This document shows positions 8,862 through 64,000 of a stretch of DNA of 64,000 nt, piece after piece. Source of the stretch: Verrucomicrobiia bacterium (GTDB lineage Bacteria; Verrucomicrobiota; Verrucomicrobiia; Palsa-1439); the NCBI GenBank assembly GCA_050013395.1, contig JBEKFI010000001.1, positions 1,004 through 65,003 of the forward strand, in the 5' to 3' direction. Made by a program: the position numbers and the translations under genes. How positions within the stretch are numbered: position 1 is the stretch's first letter; every line of letters starts with the position of its first letter. The notes beneath the pieces were generated by a model, which was not told the DNA's origin, did no database searches, and saw nothing but the letters and a program-made list of their open reading frames with translations.

Positions 8862-8942
8862 TTCGCATTGTAGCCGCGAAACTTTTTCGCGGCATCCTCC
8901 CGCGACCCACGCCTCGGCCGCGAAAAAGTTTCGCGGCTACAG
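8862..8942. repeat. REP-like palindrome TGTAGCCGCGAAAC...GTTTCGCGGCTACA
   Basis: Long inverted repeat between the Rieske and cytochrome c genes. The same arm sequence occurs at 43740-43768 and inside hypF at 63874-63935. Confidence 0.7.
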
Positions 8943-10172
8943 TCATTTCTTCTCCTCTATTTGCCGCCGTTTCGCCCAGAACAGCACCGCCATCACTATG
9001 GGGAACCCCCAAATCGGGCCGAGTGCGAGTCGTTTCCAGCGCTCGAACCGCTCCAAGCCCGAGATGTCCGTGAGCGCTTGGTTGAGAATCTCTCCGGAAT
9101 GCGCGGCCACAGGCTTCAGTTGTTGGAGAGAGAGCGTGTGCTGGAGCGCTTCCAGTTGCGTGACCTGCGTCTTGGCTTCCTGCAATGACAGTTGGTCATC
9201 GTCCGTCGCCAGACCACGCACAGTGGCGCCGTGGACTGTGGCGACCGCGTGTTCGTAGGCGCTTTGCTCTTTGCGGATCAGACCGGCCACCGCATCGCGC
9301 ACGCCTAGTTGTTTGGGGTTATTGGCGTGACACTGCACGCAACTCTCATCGAACAACGCGAGCGACGCTTTCTGGATTCCGTGATTGCCGTGGCAACTGA
9401 CGCATTCGCTGAACAACCCGGCTGTGGCCGCCTCTGCGTGAGGGCTTTTCTCGAACAACTCGCGCTGGCGGATGTGGCACTTGCCGCAGACTTGGCCGAC
9501 TTCCTTGGTGCCCGGCGGCGTCGCGCCGTGGTTGCCGTGGCAGGTGACGCAGGTCGGCGCGCTCAGGTCGACCTTCTCGAAGAGTAATTGGGCGTGATAA
9601 CTGGTCTTGTACTGCGTCACGACGTCAGCGGGCAGTTGATACTGCGCCATGAGCTTCGCGTCGCTGTGGCAGCGGCTGCAAGTCTGCGGAACGTTGGTTG
9701 GGTAGGTGCGGCTGGCCGGTGCCTTCGAGGAGAGAATATCGTGTACGCCGTGGCAATCGGTGCAAACGGCCGCGTTCTGGTCGTTGTGCTCGAACAGTTG
9801 CTCGCCGTGCTTGCTGGTCTTGTAACGGTCGAGTTGGTCGGTAGGCAGGCCGTACGGATTCATCCGGCGCACATCGCTGTGACAACTGGCACAGAGTTCA
9901 GCGATGCCGCGTTTGTTATCTGGCCGCTTAAAGTTGTCGGTAGCGTGCGCGGTCTCGTCGTTCACCTTGGGATCGCCGCCGTGGCAATCCACACACGTCA
10001 GCCCGGCCTGCGCGTGCCCGCTTTGCGCATAGAGCCCCTGCTCCTTGCCGTGGCATTTGAGACAAGAGATCTCTGCCGCTGGCGCGGCCATGACGGCAGC
10101 CAGCAACACCAGCGCCACGCCGATCACATCGAGCCGCCGTTGTGGCAGTCGCTGCATTTTTGACCTTTCCAT
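8943..10172 (-). CDS. Multihaem c-type cytochrome (about 9 CxxCH) with C-terminal membrane anchor
   Basis: Nine CxxCH motifs counted in the translation, an N-terminal signal and a C-terminal hydrophobic helix. Confidence 0.8.
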   Translation of the reverse strand: MERSKMQRLPQRRLDVIGVALVLLAAVMAAPAAEISCLKCHGKEQGLYAQSGHAQAGLTCVDCHGGDPKVNDETAHATDNFKRPDNKRGIAELCASCHSDVRRMNPYGLPTDQLDRYKTSKHGEQLFEHNDQNAAVCTDCHGVHDILSSKAPASRTYPTNVPQTCSRCHSDAKLMAQYQLPADVVTQYKTSYHAQLLFEKVDLSAPTCVTCHGNHGATPPGTKEVGQVCGKCHIRQRELFEKSPHAEAATAGLFSECVSCHGNHGIQKASLALFDESCVQCHANNPKQLGVRDAVAGLIRKEQSAYEHAVATVHGATVRGLATDDDQLSLQEAKTQVTQLEALQHTLSLQQLKPVAAHSGEILNQALTDISGLERFERWKRLALGPIWGFPIVMAVLFWAKRRQIEEKK

Positions 10173-12048: not shown

Positions 12049-12171
12049 TGCCGCTACATCGGATATCGCAGTTTATTGGTGGCAGTGCCCAGATGCCGCC
12101 CCCGTTCACCGCGGCGCTTGTTCTCGCTTGTTCCCATCACCGCCACCCGGTAAACTTCTCTCATAGGCAAA

Positions 12172-13598: not shown

Positions 13599-14040
13599 AG
13601 AATGACCAGCTTGCCCACTAACAAAGGCTCGTGACGAATGCGAGTTTGGGCGGAGCGCTGACGTGAAGAATGAAGACGGAAGGATGAGGGATGAAGACCG
13701 AGGACGGAAAACTGACGACCGAAACACTTCGTGGGAGCGGCCACGTGAAACGTGCTAAACATTCCTGCCGCGACCGGACAACAATTCTCTCCGAGCAATC
13801 GATATCCCAACCGTCATGCTCGTCAGATACCTAGTAGTACGAGGTATCGCACGCACACAAGCGGTAGATGAACGGAGAGGCATCGGAAGACGCGACGCAG
13901 CCCGATAACGATTTCACGTTTCAAGTTGCCCTCGCTACCTCTAATCATGCTCTCTCAGTCTTCAGAATCGAAGTGCAGCGTTATCGCTGGCGGTGGAGGC
14001 GGGCAACGTGGTACAACATGGGCACGACGGGAAAAAACCG

Positions 14041-15597
14041 ATGAGCGGCAAACGAAGAGTGTTCGCCATGACTGGTGTCACCGCAATCGCGGCATTGATG
14101 ATCCTCGCTGCGGCTTGCGACGGACAACGTGCGCCGGAGAAACAGGCAGCCGCACCGGCTGCCTCAAAACGGATCCGTGAGCCTGCTGTCGCCGGGCTGT
14201 TCTATCCGAAAGATCAAGCTACGCTGTCGCAAACCCTCGACGCGTTGCTGGCCCAGGCGAAGACGCACACGATCGACGGTGAACTGCGCGCTTTGATCTG
14301 TCCGCACGCCGGGTATCCGTATTCGGGGCCGGTCGCGGCGACGGCGTACCGGTTATTGTCGGGTCACGATTTCCAAACGGTTGTGCTTTTGGCGGTGAGC
14401 CACTACGCGGGATTTGCCAGCGCGTCGGTGGCCAATGCGGATGTGTACCGCACGCCGCTAGGCGACGTGCCGGTCTCGCCGAAGGCCCGGGAACTGGCGA
14501 AATCCAATCCGTTCGTGCTCGAACCGCGCTGCTTGGTACAGCGACCGCCATGGTCGTCGCAGGCGTCGCACCCCGTACCGCCCCCGGGCGAGGACACACC
14601 GGAGACGTGGGAGCATTCCGGTGAGGTGCAGGTGCCGTTCCTCCAAAAGACGCTGAAGAATTTCGCGCTCGTGCCCGTCGTTACCGGTGAAGCCGACCCG
14701 GAGAAAATGGCGCGCGTCTTGGCTGGTCAAGTGGACGACAAGACGCTGGTATTGGCGAGCACCGACCTGAGCCACTATCACCCGTACGACGAAGCGCGCG
14801 CGAAGGACAAGGTCACCACCGATGCCATCGTCAATCTCGACATCGACCGCATGAAGTCGTCCGGCGACGCCTGCGGCAAGACGCCGGTGCTGGCGTTGAT
14901 GTATCTCGCCAAACAAAAAGGCTGGAAAGCCACTCTGCTCGATTACCGCAACAGCGGCGATACCGCCGGCAACAAGGACGCCGTTGTCGGTTACGCCGCG
15001 ATCGCCTTCTACTCGCCGCGACAACAGAGTTTCATAAAACCGGAACGCAAACTTCTGTTGGATCTGGCGCGGCGGTCTCTCCGCGAAGTTGTGAAAACCG
15101 GCAAGCTGCCCGAGGTCGCCACCGACGCGTATCCCGCCAAGTTCACCGAGAAGAAAGGTTGTTTCGTCACATTGACCGAGCGCGGCCAGTTGCGCGGTTG
15201 CATCGGTCATATCCTGCCGCAGGAACCGCTGTACAAAGCGATCATGGACAACGCGCAAAGCGCGGCGCTGCACGACTACCGGTTCAGCCCCGTCCGGCCC
15301 AACGAACTCGACAAGATCGAGATCGAAATCAGCGTGCTGACCGTGCCCGAGCCGCTGACGTTCAGTTCACCCGACGACCTGCTGAACAAGCTCCAACCGC
15401 ACAAGGATGGCGTCGTCCTGCAAATCGGTAGACGCGGTGCAACGTATCTGCCACAGGTCTGGGAACAGATCCCCGACAAGGTACAGTTTATGAATTCCCT
15501 TGCCGAAAAAGCCGGTTGCCCGCCCGACGCCTGGCGCGGCCCCGGCACCAAAGTCCTCATCTACCACGTCGAATCCTTCAAAGAATCGGAGATGTAA
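14041..15597 (+). CDS. AmmeMemoRadiSam system fusion: Memo-like protein B plus AMMECR1 protein A, with lipoprotein-type signal peptide
   Basis: LICPHAGYPYSGPVAATAY (Memo family) then KGCFVTLTERGQLRGCIGHILP (AMMECR1). The N-terminus MSGKRRVFAMTGVTAIAALMILAAAC ends in a lipobox-like LAAAC. Confidence 0.8.
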   Translation: MSGKRRVFAMTGVTAIAALMILAAACDGQRAPEKQAAAPAASKRIREPAVAGLFYPKDQATLSQTLDALLAQAKTHTIDGELRALICPHAGYPYSGPVAATAYRLLSGHDFQTVVLLAVSHYAGFASASVANADVYRTPLGDVPVSPKARELAKSNPFVLEPRCLVQRPPWSSQASHPVPPPGEDTPETWEHSGEVQVPFLQKTLKNFALVPVVTGEADPEKMARVLAGQVDDKTLVLASTDLSHYHPYDEARAKDKVTTDAIVNLDIDRMKSSGDACGKTPVLALMYLAKQKGWKATLLDYRNSGDTAGNKDAVVGYAAIAFYSPRQQSFIKPERKLLLDLARRSLREVVKTGKLPEVATDAYPAKFTEKKGCFVTLTERGQLRGCIGHILPQEPLYKAIMDNAQSAALHDYRFSPVRPNELDKIEIEISVLTVPEPLTFSSPDDLLNKLQPHKDGVVLQIGRRGATYLPQVWEQIPDKVQFMNSLAEKAGCPPDAWRGPGTKVLIYHVESFKESEM

Positions 15598-17053: not shown

Positions 17054-19645
17054 ATGACAAACAGTAGACAAGTTGCGGCCCGGTCCAATGGACGACTCAT
17101 CATCTTGGCAGTCGGCGCGCTCGGTTTCTCTTCCGTCATTACGCAGTTGGCGTTAATGCGGGAGATGCTGGGAGCGTTTGCGGGCAACGAGATGGCGTTG
17201 GGAATCATTCTCGGCAACTGGCTGCTGTTGACGGGAATCGGCGCGTGGCTCGGCCGGACCAGCAACCGTCTCCGCAATCCACGACTCTTGCTCGTACTCT
17301 TACTCTTGCTCGTCGCTCTCCTGCCGCTGGCGCAGGTGTATCTGCTTCGAACATTGCGCGATGTGGTGTTCGTCCGGGGCGCATTGGTCGGCGTGACTGA
17401 GACGATCCTGGCAAGTTTTGTCCTGTTGTTGCCTTACTGCATCGTGTCCGGATTTCTGCTGACGCTGGCGTGCGCGATTGTGGGAGCGGCGTCCCCGCCG
17501 CGATGTGTAGGGGCCGGTCGCGGCGGGGACGCCGCTCCCACGAGTACAGAGGAAATTGGGGCGTCCGGTATTGGCCGGGTGTATGTCGCGGACAGCGTCG
17601 GCAGCATTGCCGGTGGTGTGCTGTTCAGCTTCGTCCTCGTCCGATGGTTGGATCATTTCGCCATGCTGTATCTGCCGGCCCTGCTGAATCTCATGATGGC
17701 GGGAGTTCTGGCGTGGAACTACAGTGGCGACGAACGAATTGTTGGCCGCGAAGCCGAAGACGCCGCTCGTCGTGAAGCGGCAAAGGCACAAGAAGACGCA
17801 AAAGGAAGCATTGCCTCTTCCGTTTTTGCGACACTTTGCGCCTTTTTGCGGCAATTGATCTGTCGTCGATGGTTGCTCGTTTGTGTTGTGACGGTCATCA
17901 CGCTGGCGGTAGTGGCACTGATGTTCCTCACCGACATGGATGCAGTTTCGACGGCGCGGCAGTTTGCGGGACAGAAGATTGTTTTCAGGAAGAATTCGCC
18001 TTACGGCAAGCTCATCGTGACGGAATCGGCGGGACAATTCAACTTCATCGAGAACGGCCTGCCGATCATCTCGACGCACAACGTCGAGCAGGTGGAAGAA
18101 ACCGTTCACTACGCCATGGCGCAGCGGCCCGACGCGCGCAAGGTGTTGCTGGTGTCGGGCGGCGTGTCGGGAACGGCGAAAGAAATCCTGAAGTACGGTG
18201 TGAGCGAGGTGACCTACGTGGAACTCGACCCGCTCATCATCGAGGCGGGACGGAAGTACCTGCCGGACAGCCTGGCCGACCCGCGGATCAAGGTGGTCAA
18301 CACGGATGGACGGCTGTTTGTGAGAGAGGTAGGGCGCGACCGCCGGGCGCGCCGTGGTCCCGACGAAAGCGGGCGGCCCGGCGGTCCGCCCCTACCGGAA
18401 GTGGGTTGCGATGTGGTGATTGTGGACGTGCTTGCGCCGTCCACATCGCAGATCAACCGGTTCTATACCGCCGAGTTTTTCGGCGAGGTCAAACTAATAT
18501 TGACGCCGGGCGGCGTGCTTTCTCTGTCGCTGGGGCGTTACGAAAACTACGTCAGCAAAGAACTGGCACGAATGCTGGCATCGGCTCATGCGACGTTGAG
18601 GCAATCGTTCCGAAACGTGCTCGTGATTCCGGGCGGACGCGTTTTCTTTCTGGCATCGGATGGCGAACTCTTTCCTGATATTGCGGCACGAATCGAGCAA
18701 CGGCGCATCCCGACGCAGTTGGTGAATCGGCATTACCTCGATGCGATGTTGACGCCCGACCGGATAAGCGATCTGCAGCGGGCGATGGCGCAAACTGCAG
18801 CCGTGAACAGGGATTTCAGCCCGGTCTTATACTATTACCATTTGATGCACTGGATGAGCCAGTTCAAGGTCAGGTTCGGTGTTCTGGAGACGGCGTTGCT
18901 GGTCGCGCTCGCGGTTTATCTGTTCACGATTCGTCCGGTGCCGCTGGCAATCTTCGTGTCGGGATTAGCGGCGTCGGCGCTTGAGGTCGTGTTGTTGCTC
19001 GGTTTCCAGATTCTTTACGGCTCGGTCTATGGGCAATTGGGAATCATCGTCACGATGTTCATGGCAGGGTTGGCGGTCGGAGCGTGGGTGGGAAACCGGG
19101 GCCTGATGCGCAACGACACGAACCCTCACCCTGGCCCCCGGTCGCCTCTGGCGCCGCCTACGGCGGGTAAACCTCTCCCTTCGCGGAAGGGAGAGGGAAA
19201 TTTCTCTCCCACGTCATCGGGGGAGAGGATCAAGGTGAGGGGGCAAGCTGTTCATACCGGAGATTGGGAGGCGATGCGTCTTTTGGCCGTGCTCGCCTTC
19301 GCCATTGCCGGGTTGTCGGTGCTGGTGCCGCTGGTGTTGATGGCGCTGGGACGACTGGGCGGGACGACAACCGGCCTTGTGACGGTGCGGGTGGTGATTG
19401 CTTTGTTGACGTTTGTTCTGGCAATGTTGGTCGGCATGGAGTTTCCAGTCGCTTCTCAAGTGGAGTTTGTCGGTCGTGCCGCCACTGCGTCGCGGTTGTA
19501 CACGGCCGATTTCGTCGGCGCATCTCTGGGTGCGTTGCTGGCGAGCACGTTTCTGATTCCGTTGATCGGCGTGACGGCGGTGTGTCTGCTGACGGCGGGA
19601 CTGAACGTCATCGGCGGAGCGGTCGTTTTGTTGAGAAGACAATAG
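17054..19645 (+). CDS. Spermidine-synthase-like aminopropyltransferase with N- and C-terminal polytopic membrane domains, carrying three in-frame repeat insertions
   Basis: VLLVSGGVSGTAKE...VVIVDV...GGVLSLSLG methyltransferase fold flanked by many TM helices. Confidence 0.75.
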   Translation: MTNSRQVAARSNGRLIILAVGALGFSSVITQLALMREMLGAFAGNEMALGIILGNWLLLTGIGAWLGRTSNRLRNPRLLLVLLLLLVALLPLAQVYLLRTLRDVVFVRGALVGVTETILASFVLLLPYCIVSGFLLTLACAIVGAASPPRCVGAGRGGDAAPTSTEEIGASGIGRVYVADSVGSIAGGVLFSFVLVRWLDHFAMLYLPALLNLMMAGVLAWNYSGDERIVGREAEDAARREAAKAQEDAKGSIASSVFATLCAFLRQLICRRWLLVCVVTVITLAVVALMFLTDMDAVSTARQFAGQKIVFRKNSPYGKLIVTESAGQFNFIENGLPIISTHNVEQVEETVHYAMAQRPDARKVLLVSGGVSGTAKEILKYGVSEVTYVELDPLIIEAGRKYLPDSLADPRIKVVNTDGRLFVREVGRDRRARRGPDESGRPGGPPLPEVGCDVVIVDVLAPSTSQINRFYTAEFFGEVKLILTPGGVLSLSLGRYENYVSKELARMLASAHATLRQSFRNVLVIPGGRVFFLASDGELFPDIAARIEQRRIPTQLVNRHYLDAMLTPDRISDLQRAMAQTAAVNRDFSPVLYYYHLMHWMSQFKVRFGVLETALLVALAVYLFTIRPVPLAIFVSGLAASALEVVLLLGFQILYGSVYGQLGIIVTMFMAGLAVGAWVGNRGLMRNDTNPHPGPRSPLAPPTAGKPLPSRKGEGNFSPTSSGERIKVRGQAVHTGDWEAMRLLAVLAFAIAGLSVLVPLVLMALGRLGGTTTGLVTVRVVIALLTFVLAMLVGMEFPVASQVEFVGRAATASRLYTADFVGASLGALLASTFLIPLIGVTAVCLLTAGLNVIGGAVVLLRRQ
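17481..17540. repeat. Perfect 23-bp inverted repeat with 14-nt loop (60 bp) inside the CDS
   Basis: tgggagcggcgtccccgccgcga / tcgcggcggggacgccgctccca; the length is a multiple of 3. Confidence 0.7.
18328..18396. repeat. GGTAGGGCGCGACC...GGTCCGCCCCTACC palindromic element, 69 bp, in-frame in the CDS
   Basis: Same family as 60779-60848; partial copies at 49338-49376 and 54046-54060. Confidence 0.75.
19140..19244. repeat. Composite NPHP/GEG/GERIKVRG hairpin repeat, 105 bp, in-frame in the CDS
   Basis: gaaccctcaccctgg...cctctcccttcgcggaagggagaggg...ctcccacgtcatcgggggagaggatcaaggtgaggggg. The same modules flank the DUF559 genes. Confidence 0.75.
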
Positions 19646-20020
19646 AAGACGTTCTTCATCAACCACGAAGTGCACAGCGCGGCAGAGCTGCAACCACAAC
19701 AACTACAATTGCCGCAAAGAGGCGCAAGGAACGCAAGAAACGGCGGGGCGGTTGCGGTCGTTTTCGTTCTTGCTGCTCAAACCCTGCCGGGCGTATTCTC
19801 GGCACCGTGAGGAAAGGAGATTTACCTCATTTTACGAGGCGAACGAACCAGGCGAACCAATAACTCAAAACCACCCCGAGAACTTTCGGGATGAAATTCG
19901 CGTAGCTTCGGCTGCTGTCCAGAAAGAAGCTTGGAGCTTTGTGACAACAAGCAGCGATGGAAGTGCGCCCCACTTTGTTTGGGCACAGGTGAACCCCACA
20001 AGTGCCAGAGGAGAACGGAT

Positions 20021-21925
20021 ATGAAAGCGCGTTCGAGGCTGATTGCGGCCAGCACGCTCATTTGTCTCATCGGCATTCCGGGTGTTTGTCAGGCTGCGCC
20101 CATACACGACGCGGCAGCGAACGGTGATCTTGCAGAGGTCGCGGAGTTTCTCAAGGCAAACACTTCGGTGGTGAATGCCCGAGATGCCGCTGAGCGGACG
20201 CCCCTGCATTATGCGGCGCTCAAAGGGCACAAGGAAGTGGCTGATCTACTCTTGGCCAACGGTGCTGATGCCAATGCTCGGTCCAGTGACGGCAGCACAC
20301 TGCTTCACTTAGCTGCCGGCAATGGTAATAAAGAAGTCGTAGAGGTCTTGCTCAGCAAGGGCGCTGATGCGCATGCCGAAGACGAATCGGGCAAGACCCC
20401 AGCGGTTCGTGCAGAGCAAGGAGGTCACGGTGATCTGGCCGGTCTGCTACTGGATTGCTTCACATTGAAAGAACTCCCTTCGGAGCGGAAAGAAGAAATT
20501 GATCGAGAACTTAGAAAATATGTCGGGGTCGACAAGGGCGAATCCCAAATCGTCGATGCCACCAATCTGGTATACAGTGTCTTTGGGTATTCCGAACAGG
20601 GTGATGAAGTCGACACGAAGACATACCGTTCGACGGGCAAGAAGGGACAAGTTTTCTACGGATACTACGTATCTATTGAGAAGATAAGGCCCGGCGAATC
20701 GATGGGTATAGTCGACGACAAAGGCGTGTTTCATCCCGCTATGAAAGTCGTGAAACACAAAGCGGTGGTGAGGGAGGACTCCGTGCTTTTTCTGAAGGAT
20801 AGTGAAAGGTATGTGTATCACAATGGACAATGGTATGTTTGTGCTAGGAAGGAGCGCGAGAAATCGAGCGCAGCAGCGCTTGATAGTGCAACTTTACGCG
20901 ACTCTCATCCGACTGGAAATGCAGCGGCGAAACCAATAGAGAAACAGACCGTGACTCTGATTGAGGTTCCTACGGGAATGAACGTAACAGAAGCGATAGG
21001 GTCCGGGGCAGGGAAACGCGAGGTAGGGCAGGCGCAGAGCACACCCAGCCAAGGTCGAACATTGGGCGAGTCCTATCTACTGAAAGGCACTCCCGTACAA
21101 TTGGGAAACCGAGTCTGGTTCAACTGGGTGCGGATACGCAAACAAACAAGCGATCAAGGTGAGCGAGCTTACCGGTTTTCCGTACCCGAAGGGCAGTTGG
21201 CGTACAAGTACCTCCAAGAGCATGATGGGCAGATACAAATAGCTGAGGTTTACCCGGGTGGGCGCAACGTATTCGAGATGCCGGAGATAGTGATCCGGGC
21301 AAAGCAAGTTTCGATCAACATGGAGACCACAGGCTTGAAACAGCAGATGGGACAAGACCTAATGCGCATTTTGAGCGAACAAGGACTGGTCAAGAACAAT
21401 GATCTGCTCGATGATGTGATCTTTGTCGCGGCTCGTTTCGCAAAGGTCGAAACAGACTTTGATGTCACTCACTGGATTCCGAAAGTCTCCCTTTCTTTTG
21501 AGTCGGCCAAACCTACCAGTGGCCTTTGGCCGAGGGATCAGGGACCTGCGGTACAAACCGCGTTCGAAGCGTGGCAGATGAGGTACTTCGGCTGTGCCAA
21601 CTGTCCACAGGCGGCGCCGGATGCCGATCCCGACCGCGACGGGATAAGCAACAGGAACGAATTTCTGGCGGGCACTGATCCGGGCAACGAGGCATCGTCG
21701 CTGCGGATCCTTTCCGCCGTGAGAAACGGCGATGACGTTGTGATCACGTGGAGGACGGTGGGAGGGAGGACCAACGTGTTGCAGGCCACGGCTGGCGACA
21801 CGAACGCGTTTATGGACATCAGCAAAGCTATCATCATCGCTGGCACCGGTGACATCGTGACCAACTACATCGACCGTGGTGGCATAGGTCTTCACAAGTA
21901 TTACCGAATCCGCATCGAACCTTAG
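20021..21925 (+). CDS. Secreted ankyrin-repeat protein with large C-terminal domain (DPDRDG calcium-binding-like motif)
   Basis: Signal peptide, then several ankyrin repeats with the TPLHxAA/GH consensus; the segment is lower in GC. Confidence 0.7.
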   Translation: MKARSRLIAASTLICLIGIPGVCQAAPIHDAAANGDLAEVAEFLKANTSVVNARDAAERTPLHYAALKGHKEVADLLLANGADANARSSDGSTLLHLAAGNGNKEVVEVLLSKGADAHAEDESGKTPAVRAEQGGHGDLAGLLLDCFTLKELPSERKEEIDRELRKYVGVDKGESQIVDATNLVYSVFGYSEQGDEVDTKTYRSTGKKGQVFYGYYVSIEKIRPGESMGIVDDKGVFHPAMKVVKHKAVVREDSVLFLKDSERYVYHNGQWYVCARKEREKSSAAALDSATLRDSHPTGNAAAKPIEKQTVTLIEVPTGMNVTEAIGSGAGKREVGQAQSTPSQGRTLGESYLLKGTPVQLGNRVWFNWVRIRKQTSDQGERAYRFSVPEGQLAYKYLQEHDGQIQIAEVYPGGRNVFEMPEIVIRAKQVSINMETTGLKQQMGQDLMRILSEQGLVKNNDLLDDVIFVAARFAKVETDFDVTHWIPKVSLSFESAKPTSGLWPRDQGPAVQTAFEAWQMRYFGCANCPQAAPDADPDRDGISNRNEFLAGTDPGNEASSLRILSAVRNGDDVVITWRTVGGRTNVLQATAGDTNAFMDISKAIIIAGTGDIVTNYIDRGGIGLHKYYRIRIEP

Positions 21926-22127: not shown

Positions 22128-22243
22128 CGTCGCTCAGAAGGTCGAGACAAGGACAAACACGCCTCGTTTTCACAACAGATCGGGCCGGCTCAAGAATTGT
22201 GTTTCGAGCGGATTGGCCCTGTGGCAATCTTGTGCAGGTACAC

Positions 22244-22492
22244 ATGAAAAGATTTGGTCACTATGCGATCAAGACGTTGCGGGTCACCAGTTGGCCGCTG
22301 CTGTTTTTGATGCTACTGTATTTGGTGACCGGATTCGCCATGAGCGGCCGGTTCGGGTTTGGAGTCCTGATGAACGAGAAGACAGCGCTTGCGTTTCACA
22401 AGGCGTTGCATGTGCCGTTGCTGATGTTGTTCCCGGTGCATGCTGTCTGCGCGGTTTATCTGGCGATGCGGAGATGGCGATGGATCAAATAG
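22244..22492 (+). CDS. Small two-TM membrane protein overlapping the start of the radical SAM gene
   Basis: Two hydrophobic helices; overlaps the next CDS by 19 bp. Confidence 0.45.
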   Translation: MKRFGHYAIKTLRVTSWPLLFLMLLYLVTGFAMSGRFGFGVLMNEKTALAFHKALHVPLLMLFPVHAVCAVYLAMRRWRWIK

Positions 22493-23817
22493 GGGAGAAT
22501 CCGAAATCGGAAATCCGAAGCCGAGCCACAGGCGAGACCTGCGCAGCAAATCCGAAACGGGTTGGGATCAGCCGGCGCGAGGCGATCGGGTACGGCGTTG
22601 CTGGTTTGGTCTGCCTGGCGGGAGCGAAAGGGCTGATCGACTATTTCCGGCGGTTCTTTGAGAGTGAGAGCCCCGCCGACATTTTCAAGGGCGACGCGCC
22701 GAGCGACGAAGTATGGGCGCTCTGGCAAAAGCGCGGTTGGACAAAAGAGGGTTACCACTACCTCAAGCTCGACCGCAACGTGCAGTGCAAGATCTGCCCG
22801 AACAATTGCATCCTCGCGCCCGGCGACCGCAGCCATTGCCGCAACCGGATCAACCGCAACGGCACGCTCCACACGCTGGCTTACGGCAACCCGTGCAGTT
22901 TTCACGTTGACCCGGTCGAGAAGAAACCGCTGTTCCATTTCCTGCCGGGCACCGCGTCGTTTTCGTTGGCGACCGCTGGTTGCGTGTTCCGTTGCCTGAA
23001 TTGCCAGAACTGGGAAATTTCGCAGAAGAAACCCGAGGAGACGAAGGACCCGCGCGGCCCGGAGTTTCGTTTGCGTCCGCCGGTCCCGGCGGCGTTGAGC
23101 ATGGAACAGATGGCGCGGCTGAGCATGTTCCCGGAAGACGTGGTGGCACTGGCCGGTGAACTGCGCTGTCCTTCGATTTCCTACACTTACTCCGAGCCGG
23201 TTGCCTTTTACGAGTACACGTACGACACGTGCAAGCTCGCCCGTGAGAAGAAAATCAGGAACATCATGGTGACGTGCGGCTCGATCGAAGAGCGGCCGCT
23301 CCGCGACCTGGCTCAATACGTGGACGCCGCACATGTTGATCTGAAGGGATTCGATGAGGACGTTTACTGGAAGCTGAACACAGGACGGCTCAAACCGATT
23401 CTCAACACCTTGAAGACGCTTCAGGACATGGGCGTGTGGTTTGAGATCATCAACCTCGTTGTCCCAACCTATACCGACAAACCGGACACAATCGCGCGGA
23501 TGTGTGATTGGCTGGTGGCGAACATCGGTCCGGATCATCCGATTCACTTCTCCCGGTTCCACCCCGCGCACAAACTCGAACACCTGCCACCGACGCCGGT
23601 GGAAACGCTGTTGCAGGCGCGCGCCATCGCGCAAAAGGCCGGCCTGCGCTACGTGTACGTCGGTAACGTCCGCGGCGTGCCCGACGTCGAAACCACGTTC
23701 TGCCCCGGCTGCAAACGCGCCATCATCGAACGCGACGTGTTTGCCATCACGAGCTTCAACATCGAAGCCGGCCACTGCAAGTTCTGCCAGACCAAGATTG
23801 CCGGCGTGTGGTCGTGA
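22474..23817 (+). CDS. AmmeMemoRadiSam system radical SAM enzyme with ~88-aa N-terminal extension containing an RR/hydrophobic (Tat-like or anchor) segment
   Basis: YHYLKLDRNVQCKICPNNC...GTLHTLAYGN and ATAGCVFRCLNCQNW (CxxxCxxC). The N-terminus reads SRREAIGYGVAGLVCLAGAKG. Part of the extension is encoded by a GAAATCCGAAA-type repeat. Confidence 0.75.
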   Translation: MAMDQIGENPKSEIRSRATGETCAANPKRVGISRREAIGYGVAGLVCLAGAKGLIDYFRRFFESESPADIFKGDAPSDEVWALWQKRGWTKEGYHYLKLDRNVQCKICPNNCILAPGDRSHCRNRINRNGTLHTLAYGNPCSFHVDPVEKKPLFHFLPGTASFSLATAGCVFRCLNCQNWEISQKKPEETKDPRGPEFRLRPPVPAALSMEQMARLSMFPEDVVALAGELRCPSISYTYSEPVAFYEYTYDTCKLAREKKIRNIMVTCGSIEERPLRDLAQYVDAAHVDLKGFDEDVYWKLNTGRLKPILNTLKTLQDMGVWFEIINLVVPTYTDKPDTIARMCDWLVANIGPDHPIHFSRFHPAHKLEHLPPTPVETLLQARAIAQKAGLRYVYVGNVRGVPDVETTFCPGCKRAIIERDVFAITSFNIEAGHCKFCQTKIAGVWS

Positions 23818-30411: not shown

Positions 30412-30921
30412 TCAACTTCCTTTCGTGTTCACGTTGGAACCTGATTGTCCCCTCTCCCTTGCGACGCAAGGGAGAGGGTCAGGGTGAGGGTTCCCCGCCG
30501 TCCGTGATTCCAATTCGATCAAGGTCGCGGCCAGCACGCCTTCTTCGTTGTCGTTAAGCTGAAAATTCCAGAAACGTAGCACACGCACCCCCCTGCTTCT
30601 CACGTACGCGTCCATGTTGGTGTCCGCTTCCTTGCGCTGCGGCGCGCCGTGTACATCGCCGTCCAGTTCCACAGCAAACTTCGCCGCGGCGCAGTAGAAA
30701 ACCCGAGACGTAAGGACCGAGCGGATGCTGGCGCCGAAACTTGAAAGCTGCAAACCGCCGATTTCGTAGGAGCCGCCAAAGCCATTGTTCGGCCAAGGTG
30801 GCGTTTCGCCGTAGAGAACGGGCACGAATCGTCGAGGAATTCGGGACATCCCCCTCACCTTGATCCCGCTCTGAGCGGGATTGATCCTCTCCCCCGTGCA
30901 TCGGGGGAGAGGAGACACCAA
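30412..30921 (-). pseudogene. Frameshifted DUF559 endonuclease-domain gene flanked by NPHP/GERIKVRG hairpin repeats, inserted between cydA and cydB
   Basis: The C-terminal half AAAKFAVELDGDVHG...VRVLRFWNFQLNDNEEGVLAATLIEL matches the 59109-59729 paralogue. The N-terminal motif WLWRLLRNRRFAAFKFRRQHPLGPYV is in another frame. Repeats at 30449-30493 and 30850-30915. Confidence 0.65.
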
Positions 30922-48802: not shown

Positions 48803-49337
48803 CTGTTCTTCTCCTCTTTCTGCGTTGGTGGCTGACCTCGGGCAGAGCGATTAACCTCGACCCGAAGGCTCACCGGTCACAGCCGGTTGTTACGGGCGGG
48901 TATTAGCAGCGGCAGTACCGCTTGTCCAGCAAATGTCGCAATTGCGTCTCTGGACACCACCGCCGACACCGAGCCGGCAGCGCAGGAAAGGTTACAGTCA
49001 AACCAGATCGCCTCGAGAATTGTAGGGTACGACCGTTTCCATCCCGCTGTGTTTGAAGAAAGGTTCCGCTCGAAAATCGCGGAGGTGCTCGATGGCTATC
49101 AAGAGGTTGTCGTCGACATTTCCGTGATGTCGATCCGCTTGATTCTTGACACTTTTCCCGGTCGATCAATTCGCGCTCTGCGTTCCCTCCAAACGGCGCG
49201 GCGGGCAAGCATTCGCGGCAAACCTTCTGCGGTGCTTTGCGCCTTTGCCGCCAAACATCGGGCGGCGTCTCGTCCGACTCGGCTTTGCGGCAATTCGATC
49301 CGAGAACATCCGCCACGTGAAGCGCGGCAAGCCGCTG

Positions 49338-49376
49338 GGTGCGCCGAAGCGGACGGCCCGGCGGTCCGTCCCTACC
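49338..49376. repeat. Partial copy (right arm) of the GGTAGGG palindromic element
   Basis: gcgccgaagcggacggcccggcggtccgtccctacc. Confidence 0.6.
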
Positions 49377-51482: not shown

Positions 51483-51590
51483 CCCTCACCTTGATCCTCT
51501 CCCCGTCAACCCCGAAAGCTTTCGGGGCAAGGCCGGGGAGAGGAGGTTTCCCCTCTCCCTTTCAAAGGGAGAGGGTCAGGGTGAGGGTTG
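51483..51590. repeat. Composite hairpin repeat (GERIKVRG-type, CCCCGAAAGCTTTCGGGG, CCCTCTCCCTTTCAAAGGGAGAGGG, GGTGAGGGTTG)
   Basis: Three repeat modules in tandem between nfnA and nfnB. Confidence 0.7.
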
Positions 51591-54045: not shown

Positions 54046-54200
54046 GTAGGGCGCGACAGCGTGAAGCGCAGTTGCGATCCCCTCTCCCTCGTGAGGGAGA
54101 GGGTCAGGGTGAGGGTGCCGGCTGCGTTGCGAGAACACCCCCTCACCTCAGTCCTCTCCCCGAGCGCGTCAGCGCCTCGGGGCGATGAGGAGGTTTCTGA
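54046..54200. repeat. Hairpin repeats (partial GGTAGGGCGCGAC, CCCTCTCCCTCGTGAGGGAGAGGG, GTGAGGG, PLTSVLSPS module)
   Basis: Several repeat modules between hdrC and hdrB. Confidence 0.65.
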
Positions 54201-59112: not shown

Positions 59113-59729
59113 ACCACGGAATTCACAGGGATCTGTCTCCTCTCCCCCGTCGTACGGGGGAGAGGATCAAGGTGAGGGGGATGGCCAGAGCGCTCCGCCG
59201 CGAGCCGACTTGGGCCGAACGGACACTGTGGCGTCATCTGCGAAATCACCGTTTCTGCGCGTACAAGTTCCGCCGTCAGCATCCCAACGGTCCATACGTA
59301 TTGGACTTCTACTGTGTGTCGGCGAAGCTGGCCATCGAGTTAGATGGTGATCCTCATGGGTATCCAAACCAGAAGAATCACGATGAGTCAAAGGATCGTT
59401 ACCTCGCTCAGCAGGGCATTCGCGTTCTGCGGTTCTGGAACGATGACCTGAGAGAAAACAAAGACGGCGTGCTGGTGACAATTCTGCAAGAACTCGAACA
59501 GCGAACGGAGGAGAACCCTCACCCTGACCCTCTCCCTTACGCTACAAGGGAGAGGGGAGACAATTTGAAGGAGAACCCTCACCCTGACCCCTGGTCGCCC
59601 CTGGCCGCCTCCGGCGCCGCCAAAGGCGGGCAAGCTTTGGCGCCCCGCTGCTGCGGGGGTAACCCTCTCCCTTCCACTGCAAGGGAAAGGGGAAACAATT
59701 TGAAGGAGATCGCGAACTATGTCCACTAA
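59109..59729 (+). CDS. DUF559 endonuclease-domain protein (Vsr-like fold), flanked by NPHP/GERIKVRG hairpin repeats
   Basis: WRHLRNHRFCAYKFRRQHPNGPYVLDFYC...ELDGDPH...VLRFWN. The repeat-derived N-terminus (SPLPRRTGERIKVRG) and C-terminus (NPHPDPLP x3) suggest the native start is near 59184. Confidence 0.7.
   Translation: MNHGIHRDLSPLPRRTGERIKVRGMARALRREPTWAERTLWRHLRNHRFCAYKFRRQHPNGPYVLDFYCVSAKLAIELDGDPHGYPNQKNHDESKDRYLAQQGIRVLRFWNDDLRENKDGVLVTILQELEQRTEENPHPDPLPYATRERGDNLKENPHPDPWSPLAASGAAKGGQALAPRCCGGNPLPSTARERGNNLKEIANYVH
59512..59700. repeat. Three tandem NPHPDPLP/GEG hairpin repeat units at the 3' end of the DUF559 gene
   Basis: gagaaccctcaccctgaccc occurs twice, with ctctcccttacgctacaagggagagggg and ctctcccttccactgcaagggaaagggg hairpins. 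Confidence 0.7.
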
Positions 59730-60720
59730 ACCGAAAATCGCTTTTTATTGGTGTGCGTCTTGCGGCGGTTGCGAAGAATCCGTCGTCGACCTCGCTGAGG
59801 ACATTCTCATGGTGCTCGATGCCGTGGACATCGTGTTGTGGCCCGTCGCGATGGATTTCAAGAAGAAGGACGTCGAGGCGATGCCTGACAAATCCATCGT
59901 GGCGACCTTGCTCAACGGTGCGATCCGTACTTCCGAACAAGAAGAGATGGTGCGCTTGTTGCGCCGCAAAAGCCAGTATCTCATCGCTTACGGTTCCTGC
60001 GCCCACACCGGTGGCATTCCTAGCCTCGCCAATCAGTTCAGCCGCGAGCAAATTATGAAGTACGTCTACGAGGAAGCGCCCACGGTGGTGAACCCCGACA
60101 ACGCAAGCGCTGTCGGGGCAGGCGCTTTGAAGACGCGGCCGGTAACGGAGTTCCGGGACAACGGCCACACTGCCACACTGCCCGTGTTTCGCAACGTGGT
60201 TCGCGCGCTCGACCAGGTGGTGGAGGTGGACTACTACATCCCCGGCTGTCCGCCCACGCCGAAACTGTTGAAAGAGGCAGTGCTGGCGTTGCTCGCGGGC
60301 AAACTGCCGCCGAAAGGCAGCGTGCTCGCCCCCGACATGGCTCTGTGCGAGCAATGCCCGCGCATTGACAGCAAACCGCAGGACCTGAGCCTCACCGAGT
60401 TCAAGCGTCCGCACCAAGTCATCATTGACCCCGACAAATGCCTGCTGGCTCAGGGCCTCGTCTGTATGGGCCCGGCCACGCGGGGCGGCTGCGAAGCGCG
60501 CTGCATCACGGGCAATATGCCGTGCACCGGCTGTTTCGGTCCAACCAGCCGCGTCCAGGACCACGGCGCAAAAATCCTGAGCTATTTGGCCTCAACCGCA
60601 GCCGGCAAAGAAGACAAGGAGATCGAAAAGATATTGGCCGGGATCCCTGATCCTGTCGGCACATTTTATCGTTACGGTTTGGCGAAGTGCCTCCTACGCG
60701 GCCGCGTGGGCGGCCCGTAG
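59719..60720 (+). CDS. mvhG: [NiFe]-hydrogenase small subunit (F420-non-reducing, Mvh-type)
   Basis: FYWCASCGGCEES...GCPP motifs. Confidence 0.85.
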   Translation: MSTKPKIAFYWCASCGGCEESVVDLAEDILMVLDAVDIVLWPVAMDFKKKDVEAMPDKSIVATLLNGAIRTSEQEEMVRLLRRKSQYLIAYGSCAHTGGIPSLANQFSREQIMKYVYEEAPTVVNPDNASAVGAGALKTRPVTEFRDNGHTATLPVFRNVVRALDQVVEVDYYIPGCPPTPKLLKEAVLALLAGKLPPKGSVLAPDMALCEQCPRIDSKPQDLSLTEFKRPHQVIIDPDKCLLAQGLVCMGPATRGGCEARCITGNMPCTGCFGPTSRVQDHGAKILSYLASTAAGKEDKEIEKILAGIPDPVGTFYRYGLAKCLLRGRVGGP

Positions 60721-60935
60721 GAAATCCGAAACCCGAAACAAGCACGAATGACCAAAGTAGCAACGACCAAGACGCGTGGTAGGGCGCGACCGCCGGGCGC
60801 GCCGCTCTTCACAACGGCTTCGGACGGCCCGGCGGTCCGTCCCTATCGTCTCGCGCCTTGTTTGGAGCATTTCCGTCATTCGAATTTCGGATTTGTTTCG
60901 TGCTTCGAATTTCGGATTTCGAGTTTTCCTCTCAT
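60721..60935. mobile_element. MITE-like element: short inverted repeats of the GAAATCCGAAA family flanking a GGTAGGGCGCGACC palindrome
   Basis: Left arm gaaatccgaaacccgaaacaagcacgaatgac; right arm is the reverse complement of cgaaatccgaaattcgaagcacgaaacaaatccgaaattcgaatgac; palindrome core 60779-60848. Confidence 0.6.
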
Positions 60936-62510: not shown

Positions 62511-63296
62511 ATGAACGTGAAAGTGCTACGCAACGTTTTGGAAGCCAACGACCAGTTGGCGACGCGCATTCGTAACCAGCTCGCAGCCAAGAAGATCGCA
62601 GCCATCAATCTGATCAGTGGACCGGGCGCTGGCAAGACGTCGTTGCTGGAAAAGACGATTCCCGCCCTCAAACATCATTATCGCATCGGCGTCCTGGAAG
62701 GTGACATCGCCACGACGCGCGACGCCGACCGGATCGCAAAGCTGGGCGTGCCGGTCGTTCAACTCCTTACGGGCGGCGCCTGCCATCTCGAGGCGCCATT
62801 GGTGCAACGTGGGTTGGGCGAACTCGATCTGGATGCGCTCGACTTGCTGTTCATCGAGAACGTCGGCAACATCGCCTGCCCTGCCGAGTTTGACCTCGGC
62901 GAGAAGGCCAAGGTGGGCATCCTCAGCGTCACCGAAGGTCACGACAAACCCGCCAAATATCCGTTGCTGTTTCACGAAATCAGCGCGCTGGTGCTTAACA
63001 AGATGGATCTGTTGCCGCACACCGATTTCGATTTCGACCAGTTTCTCCGCGATTTCCGCAAACTCAACGCTGACGCGCCGGTCTTCCGGGTTTCTTGCCG
63101 GACAGGGCAGGGGATTGAAGAATGGACACACTGGCTGGAGCACGTGGCGGACGGTGAGATCCGCGTCGAGCCGCACACGCACACGCCTTCGCCCGACGGG
63201 CTTCGGCGGGCAAGCGACCATCACGATCTCGATGCTGTCGTCCAGCCGCACCAGCATCCGCACCGGCAACATCATACCGAGGTAACGCGCGGATGA
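62511..63296 (+). CDS. hypB: Hydrogenase nickel-incorporation GTPase HypB with His-rich C-terminal tail
   Basis: GPGAGKTS P-loop...ENVGNIACPAEFD...NKMDL motifs; the tail carries many His. Confidence 0.85.
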   Translation: MNVKVLRNVLEANDQLATRIRNQLAAKKIAAINLISGPGAGKTSLLEKTIPALKHHYRIGVLEGDIATTRDADRIAKLGVPVVQLLTGGACHLEAPLVQRGLGELDLDALDLLFIENVGNIACPAEFDLGEKAKVGILSVTEGHDKPAKYPLLFHEISALVLNKMDLLPHTDFDFDQFLRDFRKLNADAPVFRVSCRTGQGIEEWTHWLEHVADGEIRVEPHTHTPSPDGLRRASDHHDLDAVVQPHQHPHRQHHTEVTRG

Positions 63297-64000
63297 AGAC
63301 GTGCATGCGCGCCAGGATCGTTGGCCGCGTCCAAGGCGTTGGGTTTCGTCCGACCGTTTATCGCTACGCCACGCAACTCGGCCTTGGCGGTTTTGTCTGC
63401 AACGGCCCGCACGGCGTCACGGTCGAAGTCGAAGGCGACGATCTGAAAGTCCGCGCATTCTTTCATCACCTGATCCACGACCCGCCCAAACAGGCAGTGA
63501 TCGCAGACATTCAAAAACAAGTCTTCGCCGAAAAGGGTTACAAGCAATTCGAGGTCATCGAGTCCGAGCCTGAGGGCGACGCGGCCGTGCATATCTCGCC
63601 CGACTTGGCGACGTGCGACGATTGCCTGCGGGAGTTGTTTGATCCTCAGGATCGCCGTCACGGCTATCCGTTCATCAATTGCACGAACTGCGGCCCGCGT
63701 TTCACGATCATCCGCGACTTGCCCTATGATCGTGACAAGACTTCGATGGCCGGTTTCACGATGTGTGCGCCGTGCGAGTATGAGTACCACGATCCGCGCG
63801 ATCGCCGATTCCACGCGCAACCGGACGCTTGCGAGAAGTGCGGGCCGCAACTCGACCTGATTACGCCGGAGGATTGTAGCCGCGAATCCTATTCGCGGCG
63901 GGAGAATGCCCGCGAAGACGCTTCGCGGCTACAATTGATGAGAGTTGTCGATCTTCTTCGACGCGGCGCCATTGTCGCCGTCAAGAGCCTTGGCGGTTAC
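63292..64000 (+). CDS. hypF: Carbamoyltransferase HypF (N-terminal part; runs off the window)
   Basis: Acylphosphatase domain (RVQGVGFRP) and two CxxC...CxxC zinc fingers. The ATG overlaps the hypB stop. Confidence 0.8.
63874..63935. repeat. TGTAGCCGCGAA...TTCGCGGCTACA palindrome embedded in-frame in hypF
   Basis: tgtagccgcgaatcctattcgcggcgggagaatgcccgcgaagacgcttcgcggctacaa lengthens the linker between the second zinc finger and the YrdC-like domain. Confidence 0.55.

Follow-up and report, generated by a model that had tools for sequence, protein, structure and literature searches.

In other bacteria, dimers of repetitive extragenic palindromes (REPs) of the GTAG superfamily are mobilized by RAYTs (REP-associated tyrosine transposases), which are IS200/IS605-like HUH tyrosine transposases. 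By definition, GTAG REPs and REPINs have a tag that may also read GTGG and stems 6-9 bp long, their dimers are tail-to-tail around spacers that vary, their sub-families use alternative stems, and REPtrons are part of the picture (PMC3733652; PMC3116915); alternative complementary stems are a general trait of the sub-families of REP populations (PMC3733652). For Opitutus terrae, about 70 intragenic GTAG REP insertions, including those in UvrA and HypF, are listed in Additional file 3 of Di Nocera et al. 2013 (PMC3733652). Over half of these are dimers, which encode 20-30 amino acids (aa), and some open reading frames (ORFs) were hit twice. In the same study, RPE-4 and RPE-6 of the Rickettsia palindromic elements (RPEs) were assigned to the CGTC class, the sister of GTAG (PMC3733652). 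Here, we describe a 64,000-nucleotide stretch of DNA (the window) from a Verrucomicrobiia bacterium, in which a gene for a fused membrane and spermidine-synthase protein has very probably taken up, at four positions that its structure tolerates, four small mobile repeats that are palindromic and GC-rich, with elements 1 and 2 being of the REPIN type and element 3 a different hairpin dimer. An earlier reading of the window from its letters (the sequence-only reading) had reported three such repeats; since in-frame REPs in Verrucomicrobia were already published in 2013 (PMC3733652), it overrated their novelty. What is distinctive here is that four elements of at least three families lie in one gene and that orthologous sites were reused by different families.

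All three repeats reported earlier are present in an 863-codon ORF, which extends without interruption from the ATG at 17054 to 19645. A fourth insert of the same gene, element 4, was absent from the earlier list. The gene and its inserts, with the sites lettered A to D in the order of the gene, are as follows.

17054-19645, + strand: host gene, an intact ORF (863 aa) for a fused major facilitator superfamily (MFS)-like membrane domain and spermidine-synthase domain.
17480-17541, + strand: element 1 (site A), a GTGG-tagged REP in a REPIN-like tail-to-tail homodimer, consisting of GTGGGAGCGGCGTCCCCGCCGCGA, a 14-nt spacer and an inverted copy; encodes VGAASPPRCVGAGRGGDAAPT.
17729-17863, + strand: element 4 (site B), a 135-nt insert (aa 226-270) whose palindrome is imperfect and rich in GCAAA/TTTGC; encodes DERIVGREAEDAARREAAKAQEDAKGSIASSVFATLCAFLRQLIC.
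18329-18395 (18328-18396 as first reported), + strand: element 2 (site C), a tail-to-tail heterodimer of two GTAG REPs, 67-69 nt; encodes VGRDRRARRGPDESGRPGGPPLP.
19121-19243 (approximate), + strand: element 3 (site D), a composite of two tail-to-tail units, the left of which contains a nested spacer; encodes NPHPGPRSPLAPPTAGKPLPSRKGEGNFSPTSSGERIKVRG.

Element 1 has the layout GTGG-GA-GCGGCG-TCCC-CGCCGC-GA followed by the inverted copy. It is a perfect inverted repeat with a 14-nt loop, as reported earlier, with arms of 24 nt (17480-17503 and 17518-17541; 100% complementary) rather than 23 nt and a total length of 62 nt rather than 60 nt. Element 2 lies at the position first given for it and has 21-nt arms that are 86% complementary. 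Its left unit reads GTAG-GGCGCG-ACCGCCGGG-CGCGCC and its inverted right unit GTAG-GGGCGG-ACCGCCGGG-CCGCCC. Thus, on both strands the unit consists of an outward-facing GTAG tag and a 6-bp stem around the 9-nt loop ACCGCCGGG; the loop is common to both units, and the stems differ by compensatory changes (GGCGCG/CGCGCC versus GGGCGG/CCGCCC). For element 3, the composite itself was recognized earlier, while the interval of 105 bp assigned to it (19140-19244) was wrong, and the 41-aa peptide given with it matches approximately 19121-19243. Each unit of element 3 consists of a CCCTCACCYTGA head, also written CCCTCACCCTGA, and a CCTCTCCC..GGGAGAGG hairpin. The outer arms are at 19123-19133 and 19231-19241, the terminal inverted heads read CCCTCACCCTG and CAAGGTGAGGG, and the whole element comprises ~121-123 nt. 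When folded as single-stranded DNA, elements 1, 2 and 3 had z scores of -10.3, -3.4 and -4.0, respectively, each better than all 200 shuffles. Element 4, which like element 3 has no GTAG tag, contains an inverted repeat (17782-17803 and 17824-17845) that is 77% complementary and is a degenerate palindrome of a further repeat family.

The same sequences recur in intergenic DNA and in other genes. Element 2 has a second, intergenic copy, as the sequence-only reading had reported; this copy has both arms in common with element 2, and it spans 71 nt (60778-60848) around an unrelated spacer. A half copy of element 2 is located at 49347-49376. Modules of element 3 occur again at 30450, 35769, 51482, 54080-54161, 59138-59180 and 59513-59693, and in total at least eight other sites in the window contain them. 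The search patterns for elements 1 to 3 gave zero matches in 100 shuffles. For element 4, hand alignments matched ~32 of 38 positions of a module at 19709-19746 to the reverse complement of 17823-17860 and gave a weak link to 49212-49254. In a scan of the whole window at the Rfam gathering thresholds no family was detected, and the hairpins are, therefore, not known structured RNAs.

We aligned 23 orthologous proteins (P numbers) and compared the DNA of six close orthologues (L numbers denote loci), the backbones of which are 82-86% identical at the nucleotide level. At the four sites, orthologue DNA was empty, carried the same insert, or carried a repeat of a different family. P0003, P0005 and P0009 have no insert at site A, P0002 (L004) has element 1 with a partly deleted left arm there, and P0004, P0006 and P0008 carry another GTAG palindrome, TGTAGGCCGA...TCGGCCTACA. 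Site B contains element 4 in the window, P0002, P0003, P0005 and P0007; P0006, P0009, P0010 and the majority of the more distant aligned orthologues lack it. At site C, P0005 and nearly all aligned distant orthologues (P0058 being the exception) are empty and read KQTNERFDVV. Element 2 is present there in five orthologues, two of which have an extra 24-nt internal piece; orthologous copies are found in L004, L008, L002 and L007, while L001 is empty. In place of element 2, P0006, P0007, P0009 and P0010 carry a REP encoding GRDAR(A/P)T, and the GRDARAT of P0006 and P0009 is a peptide also listed for O. terrae (PMC3733652). Site D is empty in P0005 (L001), contains variants of element 3 in P0002 and P0004 (L004 and L007), and is occupied in L002, L006 and L008 by a different palindrome encoding CHPERSEG...RFRSAQNDR (GTCACCCTGAGCGAAGCGAAGGG ... 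CGCTCAGAATGAC). Because sites are empty, filled or differently filled among orthologues, the segments represent gains of repeat DNA. The case of orthologues with the same peptides lacking the palindromes in their DNA was not encountered.

Two side observations concern site D. The head (T/C)CACCCTGA of the CHPERSEG...RFRSAQNDR palindrome resembles the head of the element-3 unit, and the orthologues with element 3 retain the right end (AQNDK) of this palindrome. The AQNDK remnant suggests nesting or replacement at site D.

Relative to empty orthologues, the net gain at site A is +60 nt, although element 1 is 62 nt long, and at site C it is +66 nt relative to L001, with diverged flanks, for an element of 67-69 nt. 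The earlier proposal that the repeats have lengths that preserve the frame, hence, holds for the net insertions and deletions and not for the elements themselves (62 nt, 67-69 nt, or 71 nt for the intergenic copy, and ~121 nt). Only the net insertions and deletions are multiples of three, and frame preservation acts as a filter on the net change. Similarly, the expectation of clean insertions and deletions ending at the repeat ends was borne out as presence or absence at each site, with the boundaries coinciding to within a few nucleotides only and the flanks diverged.

That the segments are instead ancestral low-complexity linkers, which were lost elsewhere and in which palindromy is incidental, is in agreement with the variable loop lengths in many lineages of this protein family (682-893 aa among the homologues). 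Yet the same DNA is found in intergenic regions and unrelated genes, outgroup orthologues are short and mutually similar at sites B and C, and the pattern matches are absent from shuffles. We consider this possibility very improbable.

As judged from its sequence, the region 17054-19645 is a fused MFS/spermidine-synthase gene that is functional and belongs to a bacterium of the Verrucomicrobiota. Its spermidine-synthase domain matches Pfam PF01564 (E = 1.7e-18), and the protein has 1444 strong matches in metagenome-assembled genomes (MAGs) of Verrucomicrobiota, annotated as "fused MFS/spermidine synthase". All family-invariant residues are retained in the alignment with orthologues. The identity of the backbone to orthologues at codon positions 1/2/3 is 0.876/0.916/0.714, indicating that the gene is under purifying selection. 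A decaying pseudogene, or an assembly artefact in which repeats were collapsed into the gene, would be conceivable in that the contig is evidently metagenome-assembled (P0001, from JGI/ENA, is 100% identical) and repeats often break or mis-join assemblies. Against an artefact, orthologous inserts were recovered in independent assemblies and samples (L004 and L005; L002 and L003; L007; L008), and against a pseudogene, the ORF is open, the invariant residues are kept and the backbone is under strong purifying selection. Together, these two possibilities are hardly credible.

The inserts evolve in a non-coding style. In the inserts shared between the window and orthologues, identity at codon positions 1/2/3 is 0.815/0.888/0.855, arguing that they lack protein-type constraint. 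This pattern fits DNA-level elements with passenger peptides; it also leaves room for constraint at the DNA or RNA level, homogenization, or recent spread by recombination. A simple tree of gains and losses was rejected, as a neighbour-joining tree of the orthologues was inconsistent with single gains, and P0003 and P0004, which are not sisters, share a 24-nt sub-insert. We attribute this misfit to recombination or weak resolution, and the mosaic distribution of the inserts on the tree points to recombination or repeated gains.

An AlphaFold2 model built from a 24-sequence alignment (mean predicted local distance difference test score [pLDDT] 75.6; predicted template modelling score 0.74) shows coil for inserts A, C and D at aa 146-164, 435-451 and 687-730, respectively, with pLDDT <50 (for insert A, at aa 150-159; for insert D, at aa 689-733). 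Insert B forms helices at aa 227-249 and 254-270 (pLDDT 62-73) outside the conserved core. Thus, in the model, inserts A, C and D are in disordered loops, in agreement with the earlier prediction for the inserted peptides, and insert B is in a helical hairpin.

Our preferred explanation for these observations is that insertions land throughout the genome and that, in an essential gene, only the survivors are seen. These would be insertions that lie in surface loops or linkers, add a net multiple of three nucleotides and bring in no stop codon, and their peptides would be small or flexible and rich in G/A/S/P/T/R. The inserted peptides would then be presumably neutral passengers. By analogy with known systems, elements 1 and 2 would have been mobilized by a RAYT-type transposase. 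An occupied site may in turn serve as a landing pad for further elements, which would explain why different families are found at identical sites in different lineages.

Several observations weigh against this explanation. A pattern search detected no further copy of element 1, which is, therefore, present only once in the 64-kb window. No RAYT was found by Pfam searches of 20 window ORFs or by tblastn with three RAYT fragments against the window and the Verrucomicrobiota loci. Element 4 was rejected as a strong hairpin, as its fold (z = -1.1) was no better than those of shuffles, and blastn-short retrieved only its orthologous copies. The boundaries of the insertions and deletions are not exactly at the repeat ends, and we saw no convincing target-site duplication at any of the inserts or bordering the DUF559 cassettes described below. 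Finally, the inserts are more conserved than the backbone at silent sites, which could reflect a function at the DNA or RNA level.

The last point bears on the possibility that the inserts were exapted, with the hairpins acting in mRNA or DNA, or the peptides acting as functional linkers, and selection maintaining them; translational pausing between transmembrane segments, mRNA stabilization, and protein or gyrase binding would be examples. In line with this possibility, third-position identity is higher in the shared inserts (0.855) than in the host gene (0.714), the arms of element 1 are perfect over 24 nt, the stem of the right REP of element 2 has changed on both sides (from GGACGG/CCGTCC to GGGCGG/CCGCCC) in a way that preserves the small hairpin, and site C is occupied by some element in every close orthologue except P0005. 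However, unrelated families occupy the same sites, P0005 is empty at A, C and D, and L004 has lost part of the left arm of element 1. Moreover, alternative-stem sub-families are general in REP populations (PMC3733652), and recent spread or recombination can equally give high similarity. We, therefore, regard exaptation as unlikely and retain the accumulation of mobile repeats as the preferred explanation.

The element-1 family is widespread outside the window. A 20-mer from its arm, scanned against one genome per species, matched at least 116 stretches of other genomes. Nearly every one of the matches listed, which include Gamma-, Beta- and Deltaproteobacteria, Acidobacteria and several Verrucomicrobiota MAGs, is preceded by a GTAG or GTGG tag, and many of these are the same tail-to-tail dimer with a differing spacer. 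The dimer architecture is identical to that of element 1 in L027, L061, L099, L045, L047 and L062, and in one Thiohalocapsa MAG the family is present in multiple copies on >15 contigs. RAYT homologues are located beside or between REPs of this family in L028, L031, L079 and L083. We also observed GT[AG]GGAGCGGCGTCCCCGCCGCGA as an identical 24-mer in Gamma-, Beta- and Deltaproteobacteria, Verrucomicrobiota and other phyla (loci L009-L124), an identity that is hard to reconcile with RAYTs and REPINs being inherited only vertically.

Across phyla, 31 of 133 sites of the element-1 family lie in coding sequences, a fraction that is indicative only, as long stop-free frames are common in high-GC DNA. 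For this reason, we used only the in-frame cases from Verrucomicrobiota, in which the REP-bearing genes were named by eye from motifs in the translated sequences. In MAGs of this phylum, the element-1 REP is present in frame, mostly as VGAASPPR...GGDAAPT like in the host gene, in genes that we take to encode UvrA, which has two inserts, UDG, a CusA-like pump, and peptidase-U32-like and UbiD-like proteins, and it is read in another frame in genes presumably for MutS and a YyaL-like protein.

Within the window, the related features are the following.

19709-19746, + strand: element-4-related module, intergenic, just past the stop codon of the host gene; CAATTGCCGCAAAGAGGCGCAAGGAACGCAAGAAACGG.
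30450-30913, - strand: second, frameshifted DUF559 copy with the same flanking units (PF04480, E = 5e-11).
54080-54170, + strand: head-to-head pair of element-3-type units lacking a gene, with 23 nt in place of the DUF559 ORF.
59113-59718, + strand: DUF559 cassette of 606 nt, inserted between flpD/mvhD and the gene for the small subunit of the hydrogenase.
60778-60848, + strand: second copy of element 2, intergenic, as described above.
63873-63935, + strand: in-frame GTAG tail-to-tail REP dimer of the GTAGCCGCGAA family in HypF; encodes CSRESYSRRENAREDASRLQ.

The HypF dimer lies between the zinc-finger region and the YrdC-like domain of an ORF at 63293-64000+, which was identified by its match to PDB 3vth (E = 2e-63), and has an intergenic sister at 8867-8943.

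The most novel lead is the association of element 3 with DUF559 cassettes. The intact DUF559 ORF (59181-59516) matches Pfam PF04480 (E = 4.7e-36) and PDB 3hrl (E = 1.5e-22) and is flanked by inverted element-3-type units (59138-59180 and 59516-59558), followed by a further long unit at 59567-59693. The second gene (30490-30850, minus strand) was recovered by tblastn as two pieces in different frames. Both DUF559 genes in the window have inverted element-3-type units on either side with the heads toward the gene, and the terminal inverted repeats of the cassette comprise ~45 bp and are imperfect. The downstream unit encodes the C-terminal tail of the DUF559 protein, NPHPDPLP..RERG, beyond the Pfam domain. 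In a survey of the best 120 of 2474 homologues, 108 of which were parsed, such a unit-derived tail (NPHPxPLP..GERG) was present in 95, and 12 had an N-terminal GERIKVRG or GEGQGEG extension; many of the surveyed homologues are on contigs of <2 kb.

For the flpD locus, we kept 80 related metagenome loci (L125-L204), of which 73 have both flpD and the hydrogenase small-subunit gene. In 56 of the 73 loci these genes have an overlap of 7-17 nt, and none of the 73 has DUF559 between them. Thus, among 74 loci including the window, only the window has the 606-nt DUF559 insertion at this position. A small nuclease ORF with inverted repeats, present in two copies per 64 kb and with presence or absence at a conserved locus, is what would be expected of a mobile cassette, and we propose a family on this basis. 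From these sequence comparisons, the DUF559 cassette is likely mobile, and it is possible that DUF559 mobilizes solo units, including element 3. A more specific proposal is that the element-3 modules (NPHP/GEG/GERIKVRG) are non-autonomous REP-like members of a family whose autonomous partner is a gene for a DUF559 (Vsr-like PD-(D/E)xK) endonuclease instead of a RAYT; we put this forward tentatively and consider it rather less probable than not. Under this proposal, cassettes would insert into tightly packed operons, and solo units and dimers would be scattered intergenically and in frame in genes. If true, this would represent a new class of bacterial mobile element and provide a function for a very large family of unknown function, and confirmation of the link to DUF559 would interest a broader field of research on mobile elements. 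Full-text literature searches returned no published link between DUF559 and dispersed repeats. We also considered that element 3 could be a DUF559 cassette from which the gene was deleted and rejected this, as its units are tail-to-tail versus head-to-head around the gene.

We made several side observations on these repeats and loci. The 606-nt insertion ends in ...CAATTTGAAGGAGATCGCGAACT-ATG and, thus, provides a Shine-Dalgarno-like GAAGGAGA for the displaced downstream gene; CAATTTGAAGGAGA is also found after the first unit at 59559-59572. A mini-hairpin, TCCCGCT(C/G)(A/T)GAGCGGGA, is nested in the ...GGATCAA|GGTGAGG part of the element-3 unit with ATCAA duplicated, and is found both at 30858-30884, where the second DUF559 gene lies downstream, and within the element-3 copy of P0002 (L004, ~12100-12140). 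This ATCAA is the only feature resembling a target-site duplication that we saw. Of two families of small hairpins, CCCCGAAAGCTTTCGGGG has four copies (8304, 12023, 19874 and 51510), one of which is nested in a unit at 51495-51544, and TGATATATCGCCTAGCGATATATCA has three copies (22105, 24651 and 24688) around the gene at 22213-23817. Short repeats of the TTCGGATTTCG / CGAAATCCGAAA type surround the intergenic copy of element 2 (60700-60930) and also fill the spacer between flpD and the small-subunit gene in L142, L144, L145 and L182. In the neighbourhood of the host gene, a Memo/AMMECR1 fusion gene is located at 13993-15597. In orthologous loci, an ~83-aa ORF and then a radical-SAM gene follow 3' of the host gene (an AmmeMemoRadiSam-type neighbourhood). 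In the window, synteny is lost immediately after the element-4-like module, and a gene for an ankyrin-repeat protein is next (19646-21925 region).

The host gene provides a clear example of REP-type repeats written into proteins, with empty sites, decaying copies and family swaps preserved in relatives. It shows that bacterial proteins can have sinks for mobile hairpins in their surface loops and in the linkers between helices, and that variation in loop length across a protein family can be driven by repeats rather than by slippage or drift. Such inserts also inflate the number of "novel" peptide segments in metagenomic protein catalogues, seed spurious small ORFs and break assemblies.

Among known systems, RPEs (Ogata et al. 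2000, reviewed in PMC10969869) are similar in being palindromes that are located in frame in numerous genes of unrelated kinds, where the protein fold can accommodate them. The analogy with RPEs drawn by the sequence-only reading is supported by the presence/absence among orthologues, the copies in intergenic DNA and other genes, and the location in coil. RPEs differ from the elements described here in host clade and GC content, and RPE-1 has a length of ~100-150 bp; judged by tag (CGTC in RPE-4 and RPE-6, GTAG or GTGG in elements 1 and 2), host and the Rfam result, our elements are not RPEs. [quoted passage not shown] Unlike for MITEs, we saw neither target-site duplications nor a parent insertion sequence with a DDE transposase, and our elements are smaller and combine or nest hairpin modules. 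Element 3 has terminal inverted heads, and its units also flank DUF559 genes; no target-site duplication is visible, and its units are tail-to-tail, opposite to the head-to-head orientation around the gene.

The DUF559 cassette resembles REPtrons and IS200/IS605 elements in that a small nuclease gene lies between inverted hairpin units that are also found genome-wide as solo units or dimers. It differs in that its predicted protein is a DUF559 Vsr-like PD-(D/E)xK nuclease and not a HUH tyrosine transposase. The Vsr-like homing endonuclease I-Bth0305I, which is intron-encoded in a phage recA gene (PMC3239194), shows that Vsr-like nuclease folds are able to drive selfish DNA mobility; it belongs to a family other than DUF559 and has no association with hairpin repeats.

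The closest similarity is to GTAG REPs and REPINs. Elements 1 and 2 have a GTAG/GTGG tag, a 6-bp GC stem-loop and the tail-to-tail dimer, and in other genomes RAYT genes are flanked by the element-1 family. The HypF dimer and elements 1 and 2 depart from the extragenic location that gives REPs their name, being intragenic and in frame, an exception that is documented in O. terrae and others (PMC3733652). As in O. terrae, which belongs to the same phylum, the inserts are in housekeeping ORFs, sometimes with two in one ORF. In contrast to GTAG REPs, elements 3 and 4 lack the GTAG tag, and no RAYT was found in the 64 kb. A single gene here contains four elements of at least three unrelated families, and the same orthologous sites are occupied by different families.

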